From: a virus
Taxonomy: Duplodnaviria; Caudoviricetes
DNA: 64,000 nt
Direction: 5' to 3' (one strand)
Virus record (IMG/VR): IMGVR_UViG_2920580016_000003
Span: 1 to 64,000 of that record
In this document: one piece after another, positions 1 through 43,291 of the stretch
Numbering within the stretch: the stretch's first letter is position 1
Layout of the letters: each line of letters opens with the position of its first letter
Notes under the pieces: model-generated
Seen by the model: the letters and a program-made list of their open reading frames with translations, nothing else
What the model was told of the DNA's origin: nothing
Database searches by the model: none
Program-made: the position numbers and the translations under genes

Positions 1-510
1 TCACGAGGGGCGGCGGAGTTGCCGCACCTCTGCGGACGGACGTTCCTCTGGCGCGTTCTCCTCGGCGCGGATGGTGCGGAGGAGCCGAAGGAACATCCTC
101 TTGTCTTCGTCGCTCATCCCGGGGATCGCCCAGATGTGACGCTCTTGCGGATCCGTGTACGGGTTGTCCGACGTTGCCTGCAGCTCGTCGGGAGGCCGGG
201 GCGGCAGCTCGTCGCGCTCAGCCATCCCTGCGTGGAGAAGCATCTCCCCCAGGTTGTAGCCGAGCGCTTTGCCGATCCGGCGTAGAACGTCCACCTCTGC
301 ACCGCGGTCCTCGGACAGGATCCGGTTGATCATTGAGGCGTGAACGTCCGCTTCGCGCGCAAACTTCGACTGGCCACCTCTTTCGAGGTTGTAGCCGCGT
401 TTGGTGAGCTCTGCGTTCAACCACACGCCGAGCCGACCAGGAGTTTTGCCCACGGGCACAGATGATACCCCGTTGATCACGCGCCGCAATATGGGCAGTT
501 GGGGCACCAC
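1..510 (-). CDS. XRE-family HTH immunity repressor (start uncertain)
   Basis: HTH pattern GQSKFAREADVHASMINRILSEDRGAEVDVLRRIGKALG; divergent from the early operon. Confidence 0.85.
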   Translation of the reverse strand: MVPQLPILRRVINGVSSVPVGKTPGRLGVWLNAELTKRGYNLERGGQSKFAREADVHASMINRILSEDRGAEVDVLRRIGKALGYNLGEMLLHAGMAERDELPPRPPDELQATSDNPYTDPQERHIWAIPGMSDEDKRMFLRLLRTIRAEENAPEERPSAEVRQLRRPS

Positions 511-3620: not shown

Positions 3621-4123
3621 TGGAGACCGTCGCCGACGTCCTGCGCACCGCCGCCAGCCTGGTTGAAACCCGGAAGGCCGTCACCGTGCACGGGGCCCTC
3701 TACCTCGCCCTCTGCGGCCCGCAGGACTTCAAGCCCGGCCAGCCGCTCCGCGTGCCGCTGTTCGCCGAGGCGTGCCGGACCTTCGCCGCCAGGGTCGGAT
3801 ACACCGGCCGCCGCCACCCTGGCGGGTTCCTCACCCGCTGGTCCGCCCGCCACAACGCAGACGCGATCGTGTCTGAACTTCGCGCGGCAGCCGACGCGGC
3901 GGCCGAAGCCGAAGCTGACGAGCTGGACTCGGTCAGCGTCCGCGACGCGGTGCGGGTCATCGCCCAGCAACTCGACATCCGCGACGTCGAGGCTGTCGCC
4001 CTGCTGATCGTCAGCGGCATCCCCGCCTTCCGGACAGACGGGCGGGCGCGGCTGCACCGCGGCGACGTCATCGCCTACGCCCACCACCTCGCCGCCACAG
4101 CCAGCAAGGACGGTGCCCGATGA
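3620..4123 (+). CDS. DUF6197-like N-terminus fused to an HTH-like C-terminus
   Basis: VADVLRTAASLV...W...H.A..IVSELRAAA; C-terminal IPAFRTDGRARLHRGDVIAY. Confidence 0.6.
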   Translation: METVADVLRTAASLVETRKAVTVHGALYLALCGPQDFKPGQPLRVPLFAEACRTFAARVGYTGRRHPGGFLTRWSARHNADAIVSELRAAADAAAEAEADELDSVSVRDAVRVIAQQLDIRDVEAVALLIVSGIPAFRTDGRARLHRGDVIAYAHHLAATASKDGAR

Positions 4124-4671
4124 CCGAGATCAACCCCGGCGACACCGTAGACGTCGTCATCAGAGGCGTCCAGTTCGCCTACGAGCGCACCATCGACCAT
4201 CGCGCAGGACTCACCTCTATCCGCGCCGACGACGGCCGCCGCTACACCATGCCCGCCCAGGCCGCCATCACGCCTCACAAGCAGCCGGAGCCGGACGCCA
4301 CCGCCCCTGCTCTCGACTCCACCGAGCCCATCGCCAAGGCGCTCGCATTGCTCGACGCATGGGAGCTGGAGGGCTACATCGAGCCGTACGTCGCCGCCGG
4401 CGTGCGCAAGGCCCTCGGTCTGCCGCCCCGTCACTGGCCGCCGCAGCCCGGCGACGTGTGGGACGACGGCATGCCGTGGGACTCGCTGTGGTTCGCCCGC
4501 GCGTACCCCGAAGAGGGGGAGAACGACGCTTGGCCCACCCGCACCTACGTGGTCATGACCAACGTGAGGGGCGGCGGCAACACGAAATCGCCGCAGGAAC
4601 TGCTCGAGTCAGTCCGTAGCTCCCGCGACGACCTCACGCTGCTCTACCGCCGCAAGGACGGCGCCCAGTGA
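4120..4671 (+). CDS. Hypothetical protein
   Basis: Coupled ORF; WPPQPGDVW motif common in actinophage early proteins. Confidence 0.7.
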   Translation: MTEINPGDTVDVVIRGVQFAYERTIDHRAGLTSIRADDGRRYTMPAQAAITPHKQPEPDATAPALDSTEPIAKALALLDAWELEGYIEPYVAAGVRKALGLPPRHWPPQPGDVWDDGMPWDSLWFARAYPEEGENDAWPTRTYVVMTNVRGGGNTKSPQELLESVRSSRDDLTLLYRRKDGAQ

Positions 4672-5537
4672 CCGCCATCTCAGAGACCGCCGCCATCATC
4701 GACGGGCCCGGCGTCTACGACATCCCCGAAGACGCCTACCACGCCGACCCCGTCCCCGGATGCAGCCTCTCCTCCTCCGGCGCCAGGCTGATCATGCAGC
4801 CCGGCGGGCCCGCCCGCTACCACTGGCAGCAAACCCACCCCCAGCCGCCGAAGAAAGCGTTCGACCTCGGCCACGCCGCACACAAGCTCGTGCTCGGCGC
4901 CGGCCCCGAACTCGTGCGGATCCCCGCCGACGAATGGCGCACCAAAGAGATCAAAGAGCAGGTGGCCAGGGCCCGCGAACGCGGCGCAGTGCCGCTCAAA
5001 CCCGCCGACTACCAGACCGTCCACGACATGGCCGACGCCATCCGCCGACACCCCATCGCCTCCGCCCTCTTCGACCCCGCGCTCGGCGAACCCGAGAAGA
5101 CACTCATCTGGCAGGACGAGCAGGCCGGGATCTGGCGGCGCGCACGCCTCGACTGGCTCCCCCGCCCCGACGACGGCCGGCTCATCGTCGGCGACTACAA
5201 GACCACGACCGACGCCTCCCGGGCGGCAATCGCCAAATCGGTCGCCAACTACGGCTACCACTGCCAGCAGCCCTGGTACCTCGACGGCGTCACCGCGGTC
5301 GGCATCGACGACGACCCCGTCATGGTCTTCGTCTTCCAAGAGAAAACCGCCCCCTACCTGATCCAAATCGTCGAACTCGACCCCGACGACGTCCAGGCAG
5401 GCCGCGAAGCCAACCAGCGCGCCATCGACATCTACGCCCACTGCCAGGCCACCGGCATCTGGCCCGGATACAGCACCGAAATCGCCACCATCGCCCTGCC
5501 CCGCTGGGCCAACACCACCTTCGAGGAGATCCTGTGA
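4668..5537 (+). CDS. RecE/exonuclease VIII-like PD-(D/E)XK nuclease
   Basis: LSSSG, FDLGHAAH, RARLDWL, IVGDYKTT, YGYHCQQPWY motifs. Confidence 0.9.
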   Translation: MTAISETAAIIDGPGVYDIPEDAYHADPVPGCSLSSSGARLIMQPGGPARYHWQQTHPQPPKKAFDLGHAAHKLVLGAGPELVRIPADEWRTKEIKEQVARARERGAVPLKPADYQTVHDMADAIRRHPIASALFDPALGEPEKTLIWQDEQAGIWRRARLDWLPRPDDGRLIVGDYKTTTDASRAAIAKSVANYGYHCQQPWYLDGVTAVGIDDDPVMVFVFQEKTAPYLIQIVELDPDDVQAGREANQRAIDIYAHCQATGIWPGYSTEIATIALPRWANTTFEEIL

Positions 5538-6439
5538 CCGAGCTCGCCATCCCCAACCGGCCCGCCACCTCCTCGCTGGTAGCAGTGGACCCGCAGCCGT
5601 CCCCGCTCATGGTGTGGGCCATGGAGGTCCAGCAGGCCAGCCAGATCGCCGAAGCGCTGGCCCAGACCTCGTTCGTCCCGGCCGCCATGCGTGGCAAACC
5701 GCACGAGATCACCGCAGCGATTCTCGCCGGCGCCGAACTGGGGCTGCCGCCCGTCGCGTCGCTCCGGTCCATGGACGTCATTCAGGGCACACCGGCGCTG
5801 CGCGCGCACGCCATGCGCGGCCTCGTCCAGTCGCACGGCCACACCGTGCAGCTCGTGGAGTCCACGAAGGACCGATGCGTGATGCGCGGCCGGCGTAAGG
5901 GCGAAACCGAGTGGCAGCAGGTGGAGTGGGACATTCCCCGTGCCGAACAGCTGGGCCTGACCGGCAAGTCGGAGTGGAAGAAGCAGCCGAAGACAATGCT
6001 GGTCGCCCGGGCCACCGGCGAAATCTGCCGTCTGATCGCGGCCGACGTGCTGTACGCGATGCCCTACGCGGCCGAAGAACTCGGCGACCCCGACCTCGCG
6101 CCGCCGCCCGCCAGCGACAGCCGGGTCACAGCCGAGGAGATCCTGCGCCGCCAGCAGCCGGCCCCACCCAACAGCGCCACCACCGAGCGGATGATCTCGG
6201 AGCCGCAGCAGAAGAAGATGGCCGCGCTCATGCGCACGGTCGGCCTCACCGACCGCGACTCGGCGCTGGCGTTCGTCAACGAGGTCCTCCAGCGCGGCGA
6301 CGACAACCAGGTCACGTCCCGCAACGAGCTCACCCTCGACGAAGCGTCCAAGGTAATCGACGCGCTCGACCGAGAGGCCGGCAAGAACAACGAGACGGCC
6401 GACGGAGACGCTGGCCAGCAGGGTGAGGCGTCGTCATGA
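5534..6439 (+). CDS. RecT-like single-strand annealing protein
   Basis: Follows RecE; FVPAAMRGKPHEITAAILAGAELGL, QPKTMLVARA motifs of actinophage RecT-like proteins. Confidence 0.8.
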   Translation: MTELAIPNRPATSSLVAVDPQPSPLMVWAMEVQQASQIAEALAQTSFVPAAMRGKPHEITAAILAGAELGLPPVASLRSMDVIQGTPALRAHAMRGLVQSHGHTVQLVESTKDRCVMRGRRKGETEWQQVEWDIPRAEQLGLTGKSEWKKQPKTMLVARATGEICRLIAADVLYAMPYAAEELGDPDLAPPPASDSRVTAEEILRRQQPAPPNSATTERMISEPQQKKMAALMRTVGLTDRDSALAFVNEVLQRGDDNQVTSRNELTLDEASKVIDALDREAGKNNETADGDAGQQGEASS

Positions 6440-6737
6440 GCCGCGCCTACTACGACCGCACCGCGGCCGAATGGCGGACCGCCACCGAAGCCGCACGGGC
6501 CGCCTCGAGCGACTACATCACGCTGCCCGTCCGCCACCTCGCCCTGATCTTCCACGGTTACGAGCAGCACCAGCAGGAACGCGCCAACGCCCTCGCCTGG
6601 ATCGCGCGCGCGCGCAGCAGGCCGGGCACCTCGACGAGGCGTGTGCCGCTTACGGCAGGCACGCCCTCGGCGACCTCACCGACGACCAACTCGCCGACCA
6701 CCTCCGCGCCACCTCCCAGCACCAGGAGAGGTCATGA
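6436..6737 (+). pseudogene. Hypothetical gene frameshifted in a (CG)6C tract
   Basis: 302 nt between two ATGA junctions; removing one CG from 6603-6615 gives a 99-aa ORF ending at the next ATGA overlap. Confidence 0.6.
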
Positions 6738-7300
6738 ACGACACCGTCGATATGCAGCGGCAAGCCCGCGCCTGGTTCAGGCATCTCCACCAGGACACCA
6801 CGTGGATTCCGAAGGTCGGCGGGCCGATCCTCATTCGCGACATGGACTCCACCTGGCGGTATAACGCCGCCAACTGGCTCCTCCGCCGCGCCTGCGAGCT
6901 CTCGATCATGTACAGCTTCGGCGAATTCGCCGCCCTGACCTCGCCGATCAGCGGCCCCGCCCTGCGTCAAGATTCCGACGGCACAGCCGAAGACGAACGC
7001 CCGCTCTACCTCGAGATGCCGCCCGAGGTCCTTGCTGACCTCCTCCAGCAGGATGCCCAGCGCGCCGAGAATCCTGAGTCGTGGCTGAAGACGACGCCGC
7101 TCTACCGGGCGCTCGTCAAGGACCTGCCCGGCGACGTCGCCGCCCTCGCGAAGCACTGGTCCACCTGCGATCTACGCACCGGCCAGGGGACGGTCTGCTC
7201 GTGCTGGATGCGGCACCTGTCTGAGTGCCCCGTCAACATGCTTCGCGACATCACCGCGAACTGCCAGTGCCGCGACAACTCGCCGGAGTGGACGATATGA
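6734..7300 (+). CDS. Hypothetical phage protein
   Basis: GGAGAGG SD, ATGA overlaps, W...I.DMD...RYNAANWL motif. Confidence 0.7.
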   Translation: MNDTVDMQRQARAWFRHLHQDTTWIPKVGGPILIRDMDSTWRYNAANWLLRRACELSIMYSFGEFAALTSPISGPALRQDSDGTAEDERPLYLEMPPEVLADLLQQDAQRAENPESWLKTTPLYRALVKDLPGDVAALAKHWSTCDLRTGQGTVCSCWMRHLSECPVNMLRDITANCQCRDNSPEWTI

Positions 7301-8148
7301 CGTTCTGGACCGGCCGGCTCGCCGCCCTAGATTTCGAGTCAACGGGCGTTGACCCGAACGAGGCGCGGATCGTCGAGGCGTACATCGGCCTCGTCGGAGG
7401 CGGCGAGAAGCCAGTCGACCGGCCGCCCCTCTATATCGACCCGGGCGTGCCTATGCCGGCTGAGGCGGCCGCCATCCACGGCTACGACGACGCTTTCCTC
7501 GCGGTCAACGGCGTTGAACCGGCGGAGGGGATCGGTCAGATCGTCGCCGCGGTCAAGTCGGTGTGGCAGCAGGGCATTCCGCTGGTCGGCCACAACATCG
7601 GCAACTATGACCTGACCCTTCTCGACAGAGAGATGGTGCGGCACGGGTTCGGCCCGCTCATCAACCTGATGGGCGGCTCGTACGGACCTGTCATCGACAC
7701 CAAGACCTTGTCGAAGCACATCGACAAGTGGCGCCGCAAGGTCAGCGAGGAGCAGAAGGCCCACGCGCTCAAAACCTGCGCCCAGGTGTTCGGCATCCGG
7801 TGGGTGGATGAGGAGGCGCACGGCGCCCGCTACGACGCCATCATCTCCGCCCGGATCGCCTGGCGGATGGGCACCATCGCGGCACTCCCGCGCGAGCAAC
7901 GCCCGTTCATCCAAGCCGGGCGCGGGGACGACCGGCACCTGTTCGACGACCTCAACGTGCCGCTCGACGAACTATTCGCCCGCCAGCAGCGCTGGGCGCG
8001 AGAGCAGGCCGCCTCCTACCAGGAATACCTGCGCTCCCCGAAAGCCGGAGACAAGCGCGACGAGAAGGCCGTCATCGACGGGAGCTGGCCAGTCCAGGCC
8101 GCCCCCACCACGGAAACCCAACCCGCCACGGAGGCGATCGCGTCATGA
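7297..8148 (+). CDS. DnaQ-like DEDDh 3'-5' exonuclease
   Basis: ExoI LDFESTG, ExoII VGHNIGNYD, ExoIII AHGARYDA. Confidence 0.92.
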   Translation: MTFWTGRLAALDFESTGVDPNEARIVEAYIGLVGGGEKPVDRPPLYIDPGVPMPAEAAAIHGYDDAFLAVNGVEPAEGIGQIVAAVKSVWQQGIPLVGHNIGNYDLTLLDREMVRHGFGPLINLMGGSYGPVIDTKTLSKHIDKWRRKVSEEQKAHALKTCAQVFGIRWVDEEAHGARYDAIISARIAWRMGTIAALPREQRPFIQAGRGDDRHLFDDLNVPLDELFARQQRWAREQAASYQEYLRSPKAGDKRDEKAVIDGSWPVQAAPTTETQPATEAIAS

Positions 8149-8663
8149 CAATCGAGCACGTCCACGACACCGAACAGGCCGACGTCGCCGAGGTCGTCGA
8201 AGAAACCGACCTGATCGTGGCCATTCTCCGCGGCTACATGGTCCGCGAACGCAAGCACGCCGACCAGTACGCCAGCGAAGCATCCCGCGCCCGGGCCCGC
8301 GCCACCGACCTGGAGAAAAAGGCGATGGAGTGCCGCGACCGGCAGCGCCGCTGGGAGAGGCTCCTCAAATTGGACGCGGCCGGCGACGACCTGTTGGGCG
8401 AACTCGTCAACGACCGAGGCGACGCCCAGACGATGCTCGTGCCGCGGCCTCGCCAGAGATTCCCGCTGGCGCACTCCCGCGAGTGGGGCAACATCCCGCA
8501 CCTGGCCTGCATCTTCTGCGGCGGCGACCTCGGCGAGGCCACCGCCGCCGACGTGGAGGCGGTGCTGGCCGGCGACGACGTGCAGCCGAAGTGTGACGAC
8601 TGCAAGGCCGCCGCCGAGCGGGGCGGCAACCCGTACCCGGCGCCGCCGAAAGACGCCGCCTAA
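8145..8663 (+). CDS. Hypothetical coiled-coil protein with two CxxC motifs
   Basis: CIFCG and CDDC. Confidence 0.7.
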   Translation: MTIEHVHDTEQADVAEVVEETDLIVAILRGYMVRERKHADQYASEASRARARATDLEKKAMECRDRQRRWERLLKLDAAGDDLLGELVNDRGDAQTMLVPRPRQRFPLAHSREWGNIPHLACIFCGGDLGEATAADVEAVLAGDDVQPKCDDCKAAAERGGNPYPAPPKDAA

Positions 8664-8729
8664 CCCTTCCGTTCCTTGACCGCGCGCCCGCCACGGGGGC
8701 TGGGCGCGCCATCCGCAAAAGGAGCATCC

Positions 8730-9005
8730 ATGTACGACATCACCATCGAGGTGAGCCAGCTCAACCTCGATCCCATTCGGGCCCGCGCGTTCGACATGCG
8801 CTGGCTCACCGCCGACGGCAGCACAGCCGTCAACAGCCGCCCGATGGAACCGGCCACCGTGGACGGATCCGCACGCGCTGTCCTCGCGCACCTGATCGGT
8901 GTCGACGTGCCTGACCTCGTCAACGAGGTGCTGCGCCTCCGCGCCGCCCTGGCCGCCTACCACGACGCCATCGCCGACCGCGCTCCCACCGGAGGCACCC
9001 GATGA
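8730..9005 (+). CDS. Hypothetical protein
   Basis: AAGGAG SD before ATG 8730. Confidence 0.65.
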   Translation: MYDITIEVSQLNLDPIRARAFDMRWLTADGSTAVNSRPMEPATVDGSARAVLAHLIGVDVPDLVNEVLRLRAALAAYHDAIADRAPTGGTR

Positions 9006-9391
9006 GCATCGAAACCCTCGACCTGTCCTACGCCGCCATCCTCAACCGGGCCGCCGACCGCATCGAGAAGTTCGGGCTCGCCGTCGAGGACTACACCGTC
9101 CCCGTCGACGGCGTCGACGAAAGCGAGTGGCCGGTCGACGTGCAGGGCAGCCTCGCCGCCGCAGCCGGATTCCCGCCTCACATCTGGGAGACCGAGGCTG
9201 TCGACTCGGCCGCGTTCCGACCCGTCCGCGACGTCGCCGACCTCCTCGTCGACCGGCTCGGCCTCGACCCGATCCCCGCCTGGGACGAGTCGATCGGCGG
9301 CTGGTCCGACGAACACACCGCCGAACACGTCGTCGGCAAGCTGCGTGAGATCGCCGCCAAGGTGGCGCAGAACGGCGGTGAAGCAGCATGA
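9002..9391 (+). CDS. DUF6197-like hypothetical protein
   Basis: AAILNRAADRIEKFG...WSDEHTAEHVVGKLREIA; resembles the 3620 N-terminal domain. Confidence 0.65.
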   Translation: MSIETLDLSYAAILNRAADRIEKFGLAVEDYTVPVDGVDESEWPVDVQGSLAAAAGFPPHIWETEAVDSAAFRPVRDVADLLVDRLGLDPIPAWDESIGGWSDEHTAEHVVGKLREIAAKVAQNGGEAA

Positions 9392-9927
9392 GCGACCGCG
9401 ACCTGACCGTCTACCGCAGCACGCACCCCGACGCGCTCACCGCCTGGCACACCGCCGCCGACGCCCGCCAAGAGTGGACCAAGCAGATGCAGGCGTTCCT
9501 CGACGAGCACGGCTTCGGCAAACGCACTGTCTACGTCGGCCACTCGGGGCGGGTCCTCGGCATCGAGCACGTCGACGGCGAGGACGCCCCCGACGGCTGG
9601 CGTGTCGATCAGCGCACTGGCTACCTCATGCCCCGACTGAAGACCCGGGCGGGCAAGCAGATCGACGCCCGCCTCGCCGAACTGGTGCAGCCGGACCCGC
9701 GCAACAAGATGCCGGGAATGCCCATGCAGTGCTTCGTCAGCCTCGCCCTGCTCACCTGCGGGATGCGGATCATCCGCGACACCCTGTACGCCGAGTGGAG
9801 CCGCCCGATCCCCCAAGACCAGGTGGACTCGGCGATCTGGCAGAGGATCAAGCTGTCGGAGTACTACGCCGCCCGCGAAGCCGACGAGGCGGTCGCTGAA
9901 CCGCAGAACGGCGGAGAAGCAGCATGA
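9388..9927 (+). CDS. Hypothetical protein
   Basis: ATGA-coupled ORF. Confidence 0.75.
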   Translation: MSDRDLTVYRSTHPDALTAWHTAADARQEWTKQMQAFLDEHGFGKRTVYVGHSGRVLGIEHVDGEDAPDGWRVDQRTGYLMPRLKTRAGKQIDARLAELVQPDPRNKMPGMPMQCFVSLALLTCGMRIIRDTLYAEWSRPIPQDQVDSAIWQRIKLSEYYAAREADEAVAEPQNGGEAA

Positions 9928-10541
9928 GCCTCGACATCGCCAAGCAGTTCGCCCGCGACACCGCCAACCACCGCCTCGAAACCCTGCACGACGACGGCCT
10001 GTACCGGCACATCCGGTTCTCAGCCCCGCCCAGCCTCGACTGGTTCGACCTGATCACGTGGCCGTACAACCTGATCGTCAACGGCTCCCACGGCTCCTAC
10101 CACTTCTGCCGCTTCGGCGACGACACCGAGGACATGTTCGCCCTGTTCCGCGACGGCTCGGCCGGTCGCCGCATCAACCCGCACTACTGGGCAGAGAAAG
10201 TCCGCGCTGGCGAGGTGATGACCTGGTCCGAGGCTGCGTTCCGGCAATGGGTGCTGCAGGAGGCGGCCGAACTGGCGCCTGAGCACCCGGGCATGATGCG
10301 CGCGGTCAAGCTCCAGATCCTCGACAGCGACGAGCACAACCTCGAATACGAGGAGACTGCCCGCTACGCCATCGCGTCCTTCCGGCACAAGGGTCTGCGG
10401 CTCGCCTTCCCGGAGTCGTGGGAGCGGACGTTCCAGGACTTCCACTGGCAGTACCTCTGGCAGTGCCACGCCGTCGTGTGGGGCATCGCCAAGTACGACG
10501 CCACGAAGGCGACCGCCCGGGAGGCGGTGCCGACGTCATGA
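9924..10541 (+). CDS. Conserved hypothetical phage protein
   Basis: HDDGLYRHIRF, WFDLITWP, INPHYWAEKV motifs seen in many phage proteins. Confidence 0.75.
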   Translation: MSLDIAKQFARDTANHRLETLHDDGLYRHIRFSAPPSLDWFDLITWPYNLIVNGSHGSYHFCRFGDDTEDMFALFRDGSAGRRINPHYWAEKVRAGEVMTWSEAAFRQWVLQEAAELAPEHPGMMRAVKLQILDSDEHNLEYEETARYAIASFRHKGLRLAFPESWERTFQDFHWQYLWQCHAVVWGIAKYDATKATAREAVPTS

Positions 10542-10810
10542 CCCCCACCGCGCTCACCATCGCCGCCACCCTCGCCGCCGTCAGCGCGGCCACGCTCGGC
10601 CACTATCTCCGCCCCACCGCGCGCGCGAAGCGGCAGCACGCCCGCTATCAGCGACTGGTGCGCCGCCTGTGGGCCGCCGAATTCGAGAAGGTCCGGCTCA
10701 CCGTCGAAGGCCGCATCGCCATCCACAGCCTCGAAACCCTGTGGCTCCGCCTCCTGGCCGACCACCCCGAACTGTACCGAACCCAGGACGTGCAGAGCGG
10801 AGGCGCCTGA
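10538..10810 (+). CDS. Hypothetical membrane-anchored protein
   Basis: N-terminal hydrophobic stretch; coupled start. Confidence 0.6.
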   Translation: MTPTALTIAATLAAVSAATLGHYLRPTARAKRQHARYQRLVRRLWAAEFEKVRLTVEGRIAIHSLETLWLRLLADHPELYRTQDVQSGGA

Positions 10811-28778: not shown

Positions 28779-29014
28779 GCAGCGGTCAGCCGGATTGGGA
28801 GGCGTTCGCCCGCACCATGGCCGCCGTCTCGAAAAGCCTCGAACACGCGAACCGGATCCTTGCCGGCCAGGCGGCGATGGGGTGGGCGTACCGAGGCGAC
28901 CTTGCCCAGTTGCGGTTGACGTTGGCGACGATGATGCCGGACCAACTCACGGAGTTGTCGATGGCTGCGACGATGTTGGCGAGCATGGCCGACGAGGAGA
29001 TGAGCAGCCGATGA
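28775..29014 (+). CDS. Hypothetical protein
   Basis: Coupled ORF. Confidence 0.55.
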   Translation: MSSGQPDWEAFARTMAAVSKSLEHANRILAGQAAMGWAYRGDLAQLRLTLATMMPDQLTELSMAATMLASMADEEMSSR

Positions 29015-29211
29015 CCTTTGAGGTGTTCAAGCCCTCACACCGACGACGAGGCACGGGGGTGCCGCCTGGACGTCACGCGGCCCGCGACCGAGAGATCCGA
29101 ACGGCATACGCGCAGGGCGAGAGCAGGACCGACCTCGCCGCCCGGTACGAGCTGAGCCACGCCCGTATCTGCCAGATCATCGCCGAAGATCAGGAGTCGA
29201 GTACCAGATGA
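29011..29211 (+). CDS. Small HTH protein
   Basis: RDREIRTAYAQGESRTDLAARYELSHARICQII. Confidence 0.75.
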   Translation: MTFEVFKPSHRRRGTGVPPGRHAARDREIRTAYAQGESRTDLAARYELSHARICQIIAEDQESSTR

Positions 29212-29444
29212 GAAACTCGATTACCGTGGCAGGCCACGAGGTCAAGGTCGATCAAGGCGATTACGAGACCTTCGACGGCGACGGCAACCCTGTCATCCGG
29301 GCGACCGGGCACAGCACGTGGTGGTGCTCGTGCGGGGAGAAGGGCGCTGGCCCGAACGAGGAGACGGCGCAGGCCGTCCACGATCATCTCGGCGTCGACG
29401 AGGACGGGGAGATGCGGGGCGGCAGTTCGCGCCGTGCGACATAG
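29208..29444 (+). CDS. Hypothetical protein
   Basis: WWCSCG...H motif; coupled. Confidence 0.55.
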   Translation: MRNSITVAGHEVKVDQGDYETFDGDGNPVIRATGHSTWWCSCGEKGAGPNEETAQAVHDHLGVDEDGEMRGGSSRRAT

Positions 29445-29500
29445 GCGCGACACTCCCGTGACTCAATGGGCGTTCAGATCGCCTACCGAAGGAGTCGGCC

Positions 29501-29692
29501 GTGGCCTACCACTTGCCGGAACTTAACGCGGCACAGATCGCCCTCGACGCCCTCGATCCCCTCGACCCAGCCGAGCGCCGCCGCGTGCTCACATGGTTGA
29601 TCGGCCGCTACAAGGTGGATGTGACCGACCTCGACCTCTCTATCGCAGTCGAGGCTGCGGACGCCGCTGGCCTACCTCCGGTCAGGGAGTAG
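29501..29692 (+). CDS. Hypothetical protein
   Basis: AAGGAG SD; ALDPLDPAERRRVLTWL. Confidence 0.6.
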   Translation: MAYHLPELNAAQIALDALDPLDPAERRRVLTWLIGRYKVDVTDLDLSIAVEAADAAGLPPVRE

Positions 29693-29712: not shown

Positions 29713-29814
29713 GTCTCAGCGGATAACTGACATTATCCGCTGAGACGGCGTAGGATCTCAGTGGATAATGTCGCCTCCGGGGCACGGAAACCCGTGGCGA
29801 AACTCAGCGGATAA
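29713..29814. promoter_or_regulatory. Tyrosine-recombinase res-like site: 14-6-14 core plus two accessory half-sites
   Basis: GTCTCAGCGGATAA-ctgaca-TTATCCGCTGAGAC (29713-29746, perfect inverted repeat); CTCAGTGGATAA (29757-29768); CTCAGCGGATAA (29803-29814). Confidence 0.8.
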
Positions 29815-29826
29815 TAAGGAGACTCT

Positions 29827-30726
29827 GTGGGCGCCTCCGTCATCCCGCTCCACCCCACCCCCGACACCACGACAGCCAGCCGAGACGCGCTCGCCGCGCT
29901 GCACCGCCACCTCGACCGGTGCAAACTGTCGGCCAACACGGTGAAGGCGTACAAGCGGCAGTCGCGCGCCTACGTCGACTGGCTGGCCGGACCCGAGGCC
30001 GACCACGACGACGCCTTCGCCGATGTGGTCGGCGCCGAGGCCGCCGTCACCACGTGGCGGCGCCACCTCATCGCCTCGAAAGCCTCCGCCGCCTCCATCA
30101 ACCAGGCGCTCGCCGCCGTCACCCTCCTCTACGCCCAGACCGGCATCCGGATCGACGTCAAACGCGTCCGCATCCCGAAACCCGGCGAGCCCCCCGCACT
30201 CACCCGCGCCGAGCAGGGCCGGGTTGAGCGGGCCGCAGCCCGCCGCGGCGCCCGAGACCGGGCCATCATCACGACCATGCTGTACGCCGGCGCCCGCGTC
30301 GAAGAATGCGGACGCCTCGACTACGCCGACCTCACCCTCACCGCTCGGACCGGCAGCCTGCGCCTGCACGGCAAAGGCGACGAGGTCCGCACCGTCCCGC
30401 TGCCGCCGGTCGCCCGTGAGCATCTCGCCGCCTGGCTGGACGAGCGCGGCACCGCAGACGGTCCGTTGTGGACCGGGCAGCGTGGCCGCCTCACCGATTC
30501 CGGCATCACCCAAGTCGTGCTCGCCGTCGGCGAAGACGCCGGCATCCCGGGGCTGCGTCCGCATCGGCTGCGCCACACCTATGCGACCCGGCTGCGGGAG
30601 GGCGGCGCCGACCTCGCCCAGATCCAAGCCCTGATGGGGCACTCTTCGCTGGACACGACTGCCCGGTATTTTCGGGCGGGTGCCGCCGAGCGGGCCGCCG
30701 TCGTCGACCGCATCTTCGAGCAGTGA
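29827..30726 (+). CDS. XerC/D-like tyrosine recombinase (resolvase type)
   Basis: Catalytic R (YAGARVEE), K (HGKG), HxLRH (PHRLRHTYAT), H/Y (MGHSSLDTTARY); AAGGAG SD; 299 aa. Confidence 0.95.
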   Translation: MGASVIPLHPTPDTTTASRDALAALHRHLDRCKLSANTVKAYKRQSRAYVDWLAGPEADHDDAFADVVGAEAAVTTWRRHLIASKASAASINQALAAVTLLYAQTGIRIDVKRVRIPKPGEPPALTRAEQGRVERAAARRGARDRAIITTMLYAGARVEECGRLDYADLTLTARTGSLRLHGKGDEVRTVPLPPVAREHLAAWLDERGTADGPLWTGQRGRLTDSGITQVVLAVGEDAGIPGLRPHRLRHTYATRLREGGADLAQIQALMGHSSLDTTARYFRAGAAERAAVVDRIFEQ

Positions 30727-30739
30727 GGAGACAGTCCCG

Positions 30740-31033
30740 ATGCACCCCATGAACGACGCCCAGCGGATCGACCACCGCGTCAACGACGAGGTCCACGACT
30801 GCATCCGCCCTGGCTGTGGCAAGCGGGCCCAGACCGCGTTCATCGCCCGCGAGCATGGGCGCTTCGCGGGACGGGACATGAAGCCGGGCGACTGGATCGA
30901 TTTGTGTGCCGAGGACGCTGCTGACGTCTACAACGCGCAGAATCAGACCCGCGCCCAACTCCCCGACTGGTTGCGCGTGGACGCCAAGCCGGACCTGGAC
31001 GAGCTGCTGCGCGATCTGCATGAAGGGTTGTGA
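30740..31033 (+). CDS. Hypothetical protein
   Basis: GAGGAG SD; CIRPGC...C. Confidence 0.6.
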   Translation: MHPMNDAQRIDHRVNDEVHDCIRPGCGKRAQTAFIAREHGRFAGRDMKPGDWIDLCAEDAADVYNAQNQTRAQLPDWLRVDAKPDLDELLRDLHEGL

Positions 31034-31040
31034 TCGGCCG

Positions 31041-31400
31041 ATGGGTGACCAGGACATCCTCGACCAGATCGACGACGTCATCCACTGGGACGGGCACAGC
31101 GAAGACGCCATGGAGTGGACATCCGAGCCGCCCAACGCGCTCCAGCTGCCCGCGCCGCCGCGCATCGATTCCGAGGCGACGCAGCAGGCGTTGGAGCAGT
31201 TCGGCCGTCAGATGCAGGCGATCGTTGACGTATTCCGGCCCGTCGCCGAGCAGATGGCGCGCAACTTCGTCGAGATCGGCCGGGTGTTCGCCGTCATCGG
31301 GAACGCGCTGGAGATGAGCGAACCCTCCGAGGAGGAACGGTTACGGCGGCGGGCGATGAAATCGGAGTACGCCAGGCGCAGGAGAGGAAGGCGAGGGTGA
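31041..31400 (+). CDS. Hypothetical protein with Arg-rich C-terminus
   Basis: ORF in operon context. Confidence 0.6.
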   Translation: MGDQDILDQIDDVIHWDGHSEDAMEWTSEPPNALQLPAPPRIDSEATQQALEQFGRQMQAIVDVFRPVAEQMARNFVEIGRVFAVIGNALEMSEPSEEERLRRRAMKSEYARRRRGRRG

Positions 31401-31645
31401 GTAGCGTGAATGACTTGCCAAGTTGGGGCCATGTGATTGCCAGAACGGTCGTCTTTCTCGCGTTGGTGGCTGGAAGTCAGATCGTGGTGGTGTACCTGCT
31501 GACGGGCGAATGGTTCGGCAACCCGGATGATCACCCGTTGTGGGTGGGCCCGGTCTCGGGTGCGCTCGCGGTTGTGAACGCGGTGGGAACAGTCGTCGCC
31601 GGGCTCATGCTCTCCGAGTCGCAAAAGGAGATCGAGCGTGGATGA
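31397..31645 (+). CDS. Small membrane protein
   Basis: Two transmembrane segments; lower GC. Confidence 0.6.
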   Translation: MSSVNDLPSWGHVIARTVVFLALVAGSQIVVVYLLTGEWFGNPDDHPLWVGPVSGALAVVNAVGTVVAGLMLSESQKEIERG

Positions 31646-31672
31646 CCTGGTCGCTTTCCTGCGGGCGCGGCC

Positions 31673-31915
31673 GTGAGCGACTGGCTGACCGACCTCAAGT
31701 TCAGGACCCAGATGAACGGCGGCACACCGCTTGAGGTGGCATGCAACCCGGACGATGCCGACCGGGTCCGCGCGTCCGCCGAGCAGGCTGGTATCGCCGA
31801 TCTCATAGAGGTCGTGCCTACCTACATCGTCCCGCCCGGCTACGCGTACGTGCCGAACGAGCGGAACCTGTCCGAAAACTTCTACGAGGCGCTCCAGATC
31901 GAGCGATGGTTCTGA
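31673..31915 (+). CDS. Hypothetical protein
   Basis: ORF converging on the XRE gene. Confidence 0.55.
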   Translation: MSDWLTDLKFRTQMNGGTPLEVACNPDDADRVRASAEQAGIADLIEVVPTYIVPPGYAYVPNERNLSENFYEALQIERWF

Positions 31916-31918
31916 TCG

Positions 31919-32314
31919 TCAGGGCTGAGCGCCTTCGACATCGGCTCTGCGCAGCGCCTGCAACATGTAGATCAGCGCCAGTCGATGCTGCTCTGCGACG
32001 CCGGGCGTCTGCCAGATGTGCTGCGCAGCCGGATCCTTGAATCGGTGCGGCCCGGTCTCCTGATTGTTGTTGCCAGATGTGGACATGTCGCCCTTGAGGA
32101 GGCCGTCGATGGTGCCTGCCTCCCATTCGAGCGCGCGTTCCAGCTTTGCTTTGATGAGATCGCTCAGCGGGGATTGCTGGGTACGGATACGCCGGAGATG
32201 AGATGTTGAGATGCCTGCACGTGTCGCGACTTTCTCCCACGGGAGATGAAGCGTGGCCCGCCGCTTGTCGATCTCGGAGATGAGTCGGCGTACGAGGTGG
32301 CTGTCGATGCTCAT
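31919..32314 (-). CDS. Second XRE-family regulator, paralog of the immunity repressor
   Basis: WEKVATRAGISTSHLRRIR HTH; C-terminal DPAAQHIWQTPG matches repressor DPQERHIWAIPG. Confidence 0.8.
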   Translation of the reverse strand: MSIDSHLVRRLISEIDKRRATLHLPWEKVATRAGISTSHLRRIRTQQSPLSDLIKAKLERALEWEAGTIDGLLKGDMSTSGNNNQETGPHRFKDPAAQHIWQTPGVAEQHRLALIYMLQALRRADVEGAQP

Positions 32315-32457
32315 GCGGGAAGTCTCGGCGTACTGCTGATTGTCTGCAACTGCTCGCTTATGGGCGACCGCATGAGCGACGAGATGACCGCGACTCCGCT
32401 GATAGCGGCTCTCACAGATTCGCCGCTTTCTGTAGTCGGCTGGTATCTATGTGTGCC

Positions 32458-32601
32458 ATGTCTGAGATCGAGCGTCTGCCGTGCGACCTGTTTCCGGTCG
32501 CCGACGGCGTGCTCGTCGTGCCGTACACCCTCCCGTTCCTGGTGCCCGACAAGGCGCTGCCGTTGACCGTCGCAGAATGGTTGGGCGTGACGCCGGGTTG
32601 A
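32458..32601 (+). CDS. 47-aa ORF divergent from the second XRE gene
   Basis: MSEIERLPCDLFPVADGVLVVPYTLPFLVPDKALPLTVAEWLGVTPG. Confidence 0.4.
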   Translation: MSEIERLPCDLFPVADGVLVVPYTLPFLVPDKALPLTVAEWLGVTPG

Positions 32602-32948
32602 ACGCGGTCAGGACCTTGTGTAACACTTCCTGCAGTCACGACACCTATGCCCTCACGCCCAGGCGCGGGGGCTTCGCGCATTTCCGGGGGTGCACCATCG
32701 ACCCCGAGCCCGTCACCGCCACCACCGCCGCGAAACGCCTCCGCCGGAAGCCGGTCACGATCCGGCAGTGGGCGCGCCGATACGCCGCCCGCCAGCTCGG
32801 CACGATCGACCGGGCCGTCTACTACGACTGGGACGATCTCGCCACGATCGACGGGTGCATGGCGCGCGGCGAGGACGTCCCGGCGACACCGGAGGGACGT
32901 GACCGGCTGCGGGCCGAACTCCGCGCACGCTGGCGGAACGCCGCCTAG
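32598..32948 (+). CDS. MerR-like HTH protein (start uncertain)
   Basis: VTATTAAKRLRRKPVTIRQWARRY...YYDWDDL. Confidence 0.65.
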   Translation: MNAVRTLCNTSCSHDTYALTPRRGGFAHFRGCTIDPEPVTATTAAKRLRRKPVTIRQWARRYAARQLGTIDRAVYYDWDDLATIDGCMARGEDVPATPEGRDRLRAELRARWRNAA

Positions 32949-33247
32949 TTCTCGTCGACCAGCCGGATCGCGGCGGGACTGTACCGGAACCAGCCCATGT
33001 ACCGGCGGTACGGGGTGGCGCTCCACTCGATGTGGCAGTCGAGCCCGGCACGGCCTTGATGCCAGCAGTCGAGGACGCCAGGATGCCACTGGCCGTCATC
33101 GCACAGCACGTCGACGACTTTGCGCGGGTGGACGCTGCTCTGCGGGCCGGCGTCGTCGAGCGTGGCCTGCCGCAGCATGGGGCGCGGGTCTTGATGCCAC
33201 TCCGCGCACGTTCCGGGAACGATCACCATCCCGCCATTCTCGTACAC
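32945..33247 (-). CDS. Hypothetical protein
   Basis: V.VLCDDGQWHPGVLDCW...C.IEW SH3-like pattern; isolated antisense gene. Confidence 0.55.
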   Translation of the reverse strand: MYENGGMVIVPGTCAEWHQDPRPMLRQATLDDAGPQSSVHPRKVVDVLCDDGQWHPGVLDCWHQGRAGLDCHIEWSATPYRRYMGWFRYSPAAIRLVDEN

Positions 33248-41478: not shown

Positions 41479-41762
41479 TGGCGTACATGCCCGCCACCAG
41501 CAAAGAGGACGTGTACGTGCGGTGGGGTGCGGACGCGGTCGGCCAGCCGGTGCAGATCGCGATCGTCCCGCCGTCGGCCGGGGAGCCTGGCGACGCTGAT
41601 TACCGCAATGCGACGTGGGTGGATGATGAGGCGTCGCTGCTGGTCGGAGCCGGAACGGATGTGCCGCTCGCTCCCGGCGTGTATGTGATCTGGTCGCGGG
41701 TCACGATCGGCAGCCGCCGCCCGGTCCGACGGTCCGGGCTGCTGACGGTCGGCACGCCATGA
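41478..41762 (+). CDS. BppU-like small adaptor protein (copy B)
   Basis: SKEDVYV...VQIAIV...EP.DADYRNATW...LLVG...L.PGVYVIWSRV...RP; paralog of 34873-35160. Confidence 0.7.
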   Translation: MAYMPATSKEDVYVRWGADAVGQPVQIAIVPPSAGEPGDADYRNATWVDDEASLLVGAGTDVPLAPGVYVIWSRVTIGSRRPVRRSGLLTVGTP

Positions 41763-43291
41763 CGGTCCTGTCGCCGTGGGAGGTGGCCGCCCGCCACTTC
41801 CAGCCGAGACCGCGCCGCTGGCCCACGCCCGGGGCGCTCGCCCGCGCACTCGACCCAACCACCGTGCAAACCCCGGCGCTGGACGTCATCGATCGCGAAC
41901 TCGTCGCCCTGGCCGACGGCGCCATCGACCGGCTCATGGTGTTCATGAGCCCACAGGAGGGCAAGTCGGTGCGGGTTTCGCACCGGTTCGTCGAATGGCT
42001 GCTCGTCGAAAACCCGGACCTGCGGGTCGCCATCGTGTCGTACGCGGACGAGATGGCCCGCCGGTGGGGCGCCGACATCAAACTCGACGCCCAATCCTTC
42101 GACGGCGCCGACGGCAGCGTCGACCTCGGCATCCGGTTGCGCGCCGACTCGCGGGCGGCGGGCCGCTGGCAGATCGACGGGCACCGGGGCGGCGTCTACT
42201 GTGTCGGTGTCGCCGGCGCGTTGACCGGCAAACCGGTCGACGTCATGGTCATCGACGACCCGATCAAGGACTTGGAGCAGGCACAGTCGGCGGCGTACAG
42301 GGATCGGGCGTGGCGGTTCTGGCAGGCCGTCGCTGTCCCCAGGTTGGGGCCGGGCTCCAAGGTGGTGCTTATCCAAACCCGCTGGCATGAACAGGACCTT
42401 GCCGGTCGGCTGCTCGCCCAGGACGCGGGCAGGTGGCGGGTCGTATCGATTCCGGCGATCGCCGAATCCGACGACGATCCGCTCGGCCGCCGCCCGGGTC
42501 AGGCTATGGAGTCGGCGCGCGGTCACCGCGACTGGGCGAAGATCCGAGCTGACGTCGGCGAGTACGTGTGGGCCGCGCTGTATCAGCAGCGGCCGGCCCC
42601 CGCGGATGGTGGTCTGTTCAAGCGTCACAGTCTGCGCCACTGGTCGAAGGGTGCGGAGGAGCGGCTGCTGCTCGACGGCCGGGTCGTCGATCTGCGGGAC
42701 TGTTGGCGGTTCCTCACTGTCGACCTCGCCGCCAGCACCAGGACGAGCGCCGACTACACGGTGGCGGCGGTGTGGGCGATCGCTCCGGACGGCGACCTGA
42801 TCATGTTGGACGGGGTCCGCGAGCGCATGGACCCGGCCGGGCATTGGCCCGCGGTGCGGGCGCTGCGTGAGCGGTGGGCCGCCGATGTCGTGTTCGTCGA
42901 GTCGCGCATGTTCGGCACCACCCTCGTGTATGAGGCGGGCACGGCTGGTGTTCCCGTGCAGGAGTTGCACGCCGACACCGACAAGGTGACCAGGGCGCTG
43001 CCGGCCACTGCGCGGGCGGATTCGGGGCGGCTGTGGTTTCCGCCCGAGGACCGGTTCCCGGACTGGGCCGATTGGCGGGACGAGCTCTTGTCCTTCCCGA
43101 ACGGTGCGCACGACGACGTCGTGGACGTGGTCGCGTATGCGGCGCGGGTGGCGGGCGCCCACTGGCTGCCCATGGAGAGGCAGCGGCGCCCGAGCGCAAG
43201 TTCCGGCTACGGCAACGGCGTGATCGAGCAGGCGTACACGGCCGCGACCGGCAGCAGCGCGGGCCTCGATCTGATGGCGATCGACTATTAG
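41759..43291 (+). CDS. terL: Terminase large subunit
   Basis: Walker A SPQEGKS, Walker B VMVIDDP, nuclease TVDLA and FPNGAHDDVVD. Confidence 0.95.
   Translation: MTVLSPWEVAARHFQPRPRRWPTPGALARALDPTTVQTPALDVIDRELVALADGAIDRLMVFMSPQEGKSVRVSHRFVEWLLVENPDLRVAIVSYADEMARRWGADIKLDAQSFDGADGSVDLGIRLRADSRAAGRWQIDGHRGGVYCVGVAGALTGKPVDVMVIDDPIKDLEQAQSAAYRDRAWRFWQAVAVPRLGPGSKVVLIQTRWHEQDLAGRLLAQDAGRWRVVSIPAIAESDDDPLGRRPGQAMESARGHRDWAKIRADVGEYVWAALYQQRPAPADGGLFKRHSLRHWSKGAEERLLLDGRVVDLRDCWRFLTVDLAASTRTSADYTVAAVWAIAPDGDLIMLDGVRERMDPAGHWPAVRALRERWAADVVFVESRMFGTTLVYEAGTAGVPVQELHADTDKVTRALPATARADSGRLWFPPEDRFPDWADWRDELLSFPNGAHDDVVDVVAYAARVAGAHWLPMERQRRPSASSGYGNGVIEQAYTAATGSSAGLDLMAIDY

Follow-up and report, generated by a model that had tools for sequence, protein, structure and literature searches.

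A tyrosine recombinase and its TnpI/IRS-like four-motif site in an actinomycete prophage

Midway along an actinomycete prophage lies a gene for a 299-residue, Xer-like tyrosine recombinase, and directly before that gene stands a perfect inverted repeat followed by two further, directly oriented copies of its half-site. This arrangement provokes a question: what is a recombinase with a site of its own doing inside an integrated phage? The window in which it was noticed, that is, the whole 64,000-nucleotide stretch of DNA analyzed here (IMG/VR record IMGVR_UViG_2920580016_000003), corresponds to G000:C1:1184724-1248723 of the 70%-GC, 12.4-Mb genome of a soil actinomycete, with Nonomuraea and Streptosporangium as named relatives. 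A preliminary description of the locus had likened it to Cre/lox or TnpI/IRS and had proposed multimer resolution or circularization of the phage genome. From the computational analysis presented below, we regard the locus as a likely TnpI/IRS-type resolution cassette, complete in itself and present here as an orphan, that would reduce multimers of the phage genome to monomers.

We begin with the anatomy of the site. Re-reading the sequence confirmed the perfect 14-6-14 inverted repeat at 29713-29746, whose arms (GTCTCAGCGGATAA and TTATCCGCTGAGAC) are 100% complementary, as well as the two half-sites at 29757 and 29803, all of them upstream of the 299-residue gene. The core arms are called inverted repeats (IR) 1 and 2 below, and the half-sites direct repeats (DR) 1 and 2; their coordinates are collected in the table. 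The end of DR2 is 2 nt from the AGGAG of the ribosome-binding site (RBS; 29817-29821) and 12 nt from the GTG start codon at 29827. Three promoter-like matches fall inside the site, compared with an expectation of 0.0. The repeat pattern is far beyond what chance would produce. A comparison with 29 other sites, described below, indicates a functional arm of ~12 nt (CTCAGYGGATAA); what sets the window copy apart is its perfect symmetry and the 2 further outer nt that bring its arms to 14 nt.

The site has no partner in its host. Exact matches to the 12-mer number three in the 12.4-Mb genome, and all three are at the cassette locus. No other core was found in the whole genome by a scan that allowed five mismatches over the 24 arm bases, and the window contains no second site beyond chance at two or fewer mismatches. 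The recombinase gene, too, is single-copy in the host genome. Thus, the lone core that had been reported for the window proved to be alone genome-wide. A tyrosine DNA invertase switch, which needs two inverted sites, was rejected on the strength of this single core in 12.4 Mb.

Does this arrangement match a known class of recombination site? As read by us from plasmid pBMB126, the IRS of Tn4430 runs IR1-ATTA-IR2, DR1 and then DR2, the last abutting the RBS of tnpI. The window site follows the same plan: an inverted-repeat core and two direct accessory motifs, all built on one recognition sequence and placed directly upstream of the recombinase gene. In Tn4430, 14-bp core motifs and 16-bp accessory motifs make up a site of 116 bp in all, and the accessory motifs impose resolution selectivity (PMC2847244). 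The likeness to the TnpI/IRS systems of Bacillus thuringiensis (Tn4430 and Tn5401/TnBth4) extends to a recombinase of ~300 residues without an arm-binding domain, to a DR2 that abuts the RBS, to a site of ~100–116 bp, and to the carriage of cassette homologues by Tn3-family transposons (PMC2847244, PMC7157771). The correspondence is not exact. The cassette arms are 6 bp apart, as opposed to 4 bp in Tn4430; the start-to-start distances IR2-DR1 and DR1-DR2 are 26 and 46 bp, compared with roughly 36 bp in Tn4430; and in the transposon relatives of the cassette, tnpA precedes the site instead of following tnpI.

How faithfully is this architecture kept among relatives? Homologues of the recombinase number in the hundreds at 65–86% identity and are found in Nonomuraea, Streptosporangium, Actinomadura, Nocardia, Micromonospora, Saccharopolyspora and soil metagenomes. 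The whole family exceeds 660 proteins. Their occurrence is patchy: within the order, 24 of 301 genomes have one, and within the genus, 3 of 44 other genomes do. One unpublished genome, G010, is counted in this tally and enters no other result. Sites were read in fetched loci drawn from genomes, one plasmid, one viral contig and metagenomes, with gene contexts taken from our own calls of open reading frames (ORFs). Thirty distinct full sites share an identical geometry: with IR1 at 0, IR2 (inverted) starts at +16, DR1 at +42 and DR2 at +88. Across all 30, DR2 lies just 5' of the RBS of the first downstream gene.

The motifs themselves fall into three classes (CAGY, CCCY and CGGC), and within each locus all four belong to the same class. 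The class goes with the recombinase: CTCAGYGGATAA pairs with recombinases at least 66% identical to the query, CTCCCYGGATAA with a recombinase clade at 60–65% identity, and a CTCGGCGGATAA-like motif with a relative at 57% identity. Neighboring genes vary among the loci, which leaves the recombinase as the one protein that tracks motif class. Because the class switches with the recombinase clade while the neighbors differ, this co-variation argues that the recombinase is the protein that binds all four motifs. The TnpI/IRS-like plan originally proposed is thereby borne out, in that the four-motif geometry is kept in 30 distinct sites whose motifs change together. The 6-bp spacer occurs in 24 variants among these 30 sites while the arms are conserved, which is the pattern expected for a strand-exchange region that needs to pair with nothing but a copy of itself. 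As judged by eye, a TA-N-N-A-T-type hexamer, in the main TAGGAT, TATGAT or TAGCAT, also stands between IR2 and DR1 in most of the 30 sites.

The same data bear on the idea that the recombinase gene is merely a neighbor of the repeats, which would be the operators of a different regulator or an end of a switch that inverts or is excised. Promoter-like elements on both strands inside the site would suit this idea. However, over transposons, plasmid, chromosomes and phages, no gene but that of the recombinase accompanies the site, the motif class tracks the recombinase clade, and there is no second site with which inversion or excision could take place. We regard this explanation as very improbable.

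What role do such cassettes have elsewhere? A Tn3-family transposase (DDE_Tnp_Tn3, PF01526, E down to 1e-126; DUF4158) adjoins the cassette in the loci L001, L002, L004 and L007; in several relatives it lies near the site, on its upstream side. A tnpA match is also found upstream of the site in seven metagenome contigs, and it ends ~19 bp before IR1 in L108, L113, L119 and L125. The L002 locus (3810-10684) is a complete transposon of 6,875 bp, with 45-bp terminal IRs (91%) and a 5-bp target duplication, ATCTA. It holds tnpA, a passenger gene for an 826-residue HEAT-repeat protein, the four-motif site and the recombinase gene, which ends 6 bp before IR-R; no other recombinase was found inside the transposon. 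It would make a good reference element for the actinomycete cassette family. In L001, 43-bp IRs of the same type as those of L002 surround the cassette.

Tn3-family elements transpose replicatively and require a resolvase. As the cassette recombinase is the sole one present in these transposons, it would, by elimination, be their cointegrate resolvase. These IR-bounded elements strongly support the earlier view of the locus as a TnpI/IRS-like resolution site and not an invertase. Since homologues of the cassette reside inside Tn3-family transposons, the TnpI/IRS half of the original comparison holds by function; the Cre/lox half is an analogy only. A 2020 survey of 190 Tn3 members placed the TnpI class in three Bacillus transposons only (PMC7157771). 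The revised annotation of Tn4556, from Streptomyces fradiae, gives a 324-residue PF00589 resolvase (“TnpR”) with an upstream palindrome (PMC6403206). Tn4556 resembles the present family in being an actinomycete Tn3-family element with a tyrosine-recombinase resolvase and a palindrome (11-bp stems) ~80–110 bp upstream (PMC6403206). The likeness is by description only: accessory repeats are not described for the Tn4556 res, and that system is borne by a transposon, not a phage.

The window copy differs from these homologues. Whereas they lie within transposons bounded by Tn3-type IRs and equipped with a DDE_Tnp_Tn3 transposase, it does not. No Tn3 transposase was found in the window or on its contig, and the genome holds only fragments on other contigs. 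There are no convincing flanking IRs across 26–35 kb, and no matches to the terminal IRs of L001, L002 or L004 near the cassette; Tn3 ends around the window cassette were rejected on these grounds. The same cassette is present in a related phage, L030 (IMG/VR UViG_2936106464_000004), which has 13 genes in common with the prophage. It is the sole stretch with 84% nucleotide identity between the two phages (9888-10899 in L030). Nucleotide homology begins at the first base of IR1 (29715) and stops 2 nt past the stop codon (30728). In the window the cassette is 3' of the homologues of genes 28856-29416 and in L030 it is 5' of them, with a different flanking order. The sharp edges of homology and the differing position indicate that the cassette is a discrete unit of 1,014 bp.

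In both phage copies the ORF is unbroken, and the four motifs are all present at the exact distances. Between the window and L030 recombinases, the ratio of nonsynonymous to synonymous substitution rates (dN/dS) is 0.17 and dS is 0.49; neighboring phage genes have dN/dS of 0.16–0.33 and dS of 0.61–0.97. The phage copies of the cassette are under purifying selection. A quick maximum-likelihood tree, calculated with IQ-TREE and supported only by the Shimodaira–Hasegawa-like approximate likelihood-ratio test (SH-aLRT), groups the two copies as monophyletic (SH-aLRT 99). They nest among Tn3-borne ones, with L001 in the sister clade and L002, L108 and L007 further out. A search of IMG/VR (2.9 million viral contigs) for the core pattern returned one other contig only, L030. 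The data fit a cassette acquired once, from a transposon-type source, and then kept for a long time in a temperate siphovirus lineage. By sequence comparison, then, and going beyond what the preliminary description had proposed, the cassette appears to come from a transposon-borne lineage, and in phages it is rare.

The mechanism could be the same and yet be of no use to the phage, in which case the cassette would be a stranded remnant or selfish passenger of a Tn3-family insertion, kept because it is harmless and autoregulated. That only one other IMG/VR contig carries the cassette, that it is differently placed in two related phages, that its flanking genes have no known function and that truncated or rearranged copies of the site are common elsewhere (L007, L011, L014, L102-L104 and L115) would all suit a passenger. 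On the other hand, no traces of tnpA or of transposon IRs are left, both phage copies keep the ORF and four exactly spaced motifs despite a dS of ~0.5 (dN/dS 0.17), and their monophyly implies long residence in the lineage. On balance, we consider a mere passenger unlikely.

The damaged copies deserve a description of their own. In L014 (~200-330), the spacer and IR2 alone remain and foreign DNA replaces IR1, so that the locus resembles a recombination junction. Only DR1 and DR2 survive in L007 and L011, only DR2 in L102-L104, and in L115 IR1 and the spacer are joined straight to the start of the gene. The site looks like a rearrangement hotspot. In L094 (4458-9294) and L097 (5354-9297), an insertion of ~3.9–4.8 kb with a serine resolvase (PF00239, E 8e-35) separates DR1 from DR2; it may be a res-hunting element that landed in a tyrosine-recombinase site.

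Copies of the cassette are clearly found in several settings. In the CTCCCYGGATAA (CCCY) subclade, the site and recombinase are divergent from the 5' end of a gene for a 2,500–3,000-residue Rhs/YD-repeat toxin (RHS_repeat E 2e-107, PT-HINT, LamG) in L087 (960-8936, minus strand), L089, L090, L092, L094, L095 and L097; these loci come from related genomes and are hence non-independent. An extra ORF of 166–250 residues, for which there is no Pfam match, lies between DR2 and the recombinase in L003, L005, L006, L007, L015 and L016 and is translationally coupled to the recombinase. Many copies have it, at least some of them transposon-borne, whereas L001, L002 and the copies on phages and the plasmid lack it. 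A deletion in L004 joins tnpA to the C-terminus of this ORF, and the site is lost. In L043 (NZ_CP108881.1, 1572-2590; 68% identity), the cassette stands alone on a mobilizable 77-kb plasmid of Micromonospora, with the full four-motif site and without a tnpA match in the ~8 kb examined. There, the cassette probably serves plasmid multimer resolution.

To which family does the protein belong? Membership in the tyrosine recombinase superfamily follows from a profile match to PF00589 (E 4.9e-26; 92 bits, cut-off 27.1) together with an N-terminal SAM-like core-binding domain, PF02899 (E 1.7e-05; 25.4 bits, cut-off 22.3). PHROG integrase families match the ORF as well. Alignment to XerA shows that the catalytic R...H-x-x-R...H/W...Y set is complete, with R157 in GARVEE, H246 and R249 in HRLRH, and H272 and Y281 in GHSSLDTTARY. 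By sequence, the XerC/XerD-dif system is the nearest: identity to a host Xer is 37% (83.7 bits), XerA and XerD are the best matches in the PDB, and the central regions of both kinds of site are 6 bp long. The protein is nevertheless not an XerC or XerD. It scores far below the equivalog cut-offs of all the NCBIfam Xer models (TIGR02224, 125.8 vs. 335.15; TIGR02225, 106.5 vs. 329.6), its occurrence is patchy, as given above for the 301 genomes of the order, and it has a four-motif site of its own with no pairing with a second recombinase.

Several observations weigh against our interpretation. The recombinase is only 22% (55.8 bits) and 24% (70.9 bits) identical to the Bacillus TnpI proteins of Tn4430 and Tn5401, less than to the host Xer, and in the tree TnpI occupies a separate, long and deep branch while the cassette family is nearer Xer; judged by sequence, the family is analogous rather than orthologous to Bacillus TnpI. 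Moreover, the canonical Lys of the β2-β3 hairpin (GKGxKxR) is missing. Glu186 is aligned there (GKGDEVR, residues 182-188, window 30370-30390), at a position that we take, from XerD K172 and Cre K201, to be that of the catalytic Lys. Of 120 homologues, 116 carry the motif, and every one of these has E or Q there (GKGD[E/Q]VR), whereas K (GKGxKxR) is found in XerA, in both TnpI proteins and in one host Xer. Standard catalysis is for that reason not to be assumed, though R, H-x-x-R, H and Y are present. The invariant Lys183 (in GKG) may substitute for the canonical residue. At the hairpin position, the second host Xer paralogue (C16) carries Arg. Further, most of the chromosomal copies that were examined lack a Tn3 transposase in the surrounding ~9.5 kb. 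Finally, any benefit to the phage is putative; the cassette is rare in viruses and differently placed in the two phages, and it could just be carried along as a passenger.

Could the recombinase instead be part of the integration machinery? The prophage is intact. It is siphovirus-like, occupies ~86.8 kb of DNA with a lower GC content at third codon positions, and is integrated between 53-bp direct repeats (98% identity). An integrase besides the cassette recombinase had been anticipated, and it exists: a separate tyrosine integrase of 413 residues adjoins attR at tRNA-Val. The cassette recombinase is internal and additional to it, and its site is unbroken in the integrated state. With the core intact and the att repeats elsewhere, the site does not look like the attP or attL of chromosomal integration, a possibility that the preliminary description had set against its own proposal. 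Its further suggestion, that the phage persists as an autonomous circle, found no support. The element is integrated, and matches to ParB_N (PF02195) and to the ParA-type AAA_31 (PF13614) are absent from the prophage, all of them being elsewhere in the genome; a plasmid lifestyle is thus not supported.

One might still imagine the recombinase as a second, arm-less integrase of the Brujita type, with the palindrome as an attP for a secondary chromosomal site. Simple tyrosine recombinases can act as phage integrases (PMC8138268), the Brujita integrase (PDB 5vfz) is a detectable relative of the recombinase (E 6e-13), and the hybrid core of L014, which keeps IR2 only, is as expected after recombination with a foreign site. 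Against this, the core is unsplit in the middle of a prophage that has its own att repeats and its own integrase, the host genome holds no core-like partner at five mismatches, and the intact site of relatives sits within transposons. We give a Brujita-type role very little credence.

How, then, would a resolution cassette of the TnpI/IRS type operate in this phage? The site anatomy, taken with the precedents of Tn4430 and Tn5401, suggests that four recombinase protomers would occupy the four CTCAGYGGATAA copies. IR1 and IR2 around the 6-bp crossover spacer would form the catalytic core, and DR1 and DR2, at their fixed gene-proximal distances, would be accessory sites that favor the synapsis of directly repeated copies. 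Such a synapse would lead to deletion or resolution, not to inversion or fusion. In the relatives, the cassette would be the cointegrate-resolution module of Tn3-family transposons. In the prophage, one site per genome means that there is no partner for recombination during integration. Circular dimers, multimers or concatemers of the phage genome would be the only substrates, and the recombinase would reduce them to monomers. After excision or infection, theta replication and the phage recombination nuclease would generate circular dimers and higher forms with directly repeated sites, and the accessory-motif synapse would favor intramolecular deletion and so give monomers back.

In the integrated state, the recombinase may act only as its own repressor. 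IR2 and DR1 flank a -10-like element and DR2 abuts the RBS, an arrangement that suggests that the recombinase represses its own transcription. Tn5401 offers a parallel, as its TnpI also regulates transcription from its own site (PMC7157771).

The analogy with Cre/loxP of phage P1 is instructive within limits. Both systems comprise a phage-encoded simple tyrosine recombinase and a single palindromic site beside its gene, and both would act on duplicated genomes only, in dimer resolution and cyclization. P1, however, lives as a plasmid prophage and has a par system, whereas the present prophage is integrated and without a ParA/ParB match. The loxP site is 13-8-13, without accessory motifs or a topological filter, and no specific sequence relationship was seen between Cre and the cassette recombinase. 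A Cre-like cyclization of terminally redundant DNA, as in P1, is possibly a further use, but a speculative one; TerL is 12 kb downstream of the site.

A broader proposal can be put forward only tentatively: that a temperate actinophage lineage domesticated a transposon cointegrate-resolution cassette as a Cre/lox-like multimer-resolution or cyclization system, and that the cassette represents a large, undescribed family of actinomycete TnpI-like recombinases with a rigid four-motif site, at least three orthogonal classes (CAGY, CCCY and CGGC) and no canonical hairpin lysine. If true, it would provide a ready set of orthogonal, direction-selective recombinases for high-GC bacteria.

Coordinates of the recombination cassette and of the prophage features that frame it (window positions, except for the two att repeats, which are given on contig C1)
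Feature	Position	Strand	Remarks
Whole cassette (site and recombinase gene)	29715..30728	+	1,014 bp; extent from nucleotide homology to L030
IR1, left arm of core, GTCTCAGCGGATAA	29713..29726	+	Conserved 12-mer CTCAGCGGATAA at 29715-29726; position kept in 30 distinct sites
Central spacer CTGACA, 6 bp	29727..29732	+	Presumed strand-exchange region; cleavage positions putative
IR2, right arm of core, TTATCCGCTGAGAC (TTATCCGCTGAG plus 2 nt)	29733..29746	-	
-10-like hexamer TAGGAT, between IR2 and DR1	29751..29756	+	Putative function
DR1, accessory motif, CTCAGTGGATAA	29757..29768	+	Direct copy, 1 mismatch; starts +42 nt from IR1
DR2, accessory motif, CTCAGCGGATAA	29803..29814	+	Exact direct copy; starts +88 nt from IR1
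Xer-like tyrosine recombinase gene	29827..30726	+	299 aa; R157, H246, R249, H272, Y281; hairpin GKGDEVR 182-188
HTH_3 repressor-like gene, left end of prophage	1..510	-	Pfam HTH_3, E 2.9e-4
att repeat, left, 53 bp	C1:1184484-1184536		~190–240 bp left of window position 1
att repeat, right	C1:1271215-1271266		Inside tRNA-Val(CAC); ~86.5 kb from window position 1

The remainder of the prophage is organized as follows. Its early genes encode a PD-(D/E)XK nuclease, a DnaQ-like exonuclease, a DnaN-like clamp, two methylases and a primase-polymerase. The late genes encode TerL (41759-43291), a portal, a head protease, a major capsid protein, a tape-measure protein of 1,581 residues, minor tail proteins and a CHAP endolysin. 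The final 22 kb (window-equivalent 64–86 kb) contain minus-strand genes without known function, helix-turn-helix (HTH) regulators (HTH_31 plus DUF5753) and the 413-residue integrase. The ORFs neighboring the cassette, at 29208-29692 and 30906-33247, have no family matches. A small ORF at 28795-29211, at the early/late boundary of the prophage, has a weak C-terminal HTH resembling Mor-type late-transcriptional activators (Pfam E 1.1e-3, below the cut-off; PHROG 836, E 4e-5). A Mu-like transposable phage, which this weak match brought to mind, was ruled out by the att repeats at tRNA-Val, the integrase, and the primase-polymerase and DnaN genes. No near-identical phage was found in GenBank.

These findings have implications beyond the one phage. 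The fixed geometry of the site and its co-varying recognition classes make the relation between motif class and recombinase clade directly testable, and the loss of the canonical hairpin Lys throughout the family poses the question of how strand cleavage is catalyzed. Resolution-selective pairs of recombinase and site that are native to high-GC actinomycetes could serve genome engineering. The TnpI class, known from three Bacillus transposons (PMC7157771), is extended to a widespread actinomycete family. A phage recombinase that resembles a private Cre/lox is, by its relatives, a module of a transposon-borne lineage, and the cassette offers a clean case of resolution modules passing among transposons, plasmids, chromosomes and phages.

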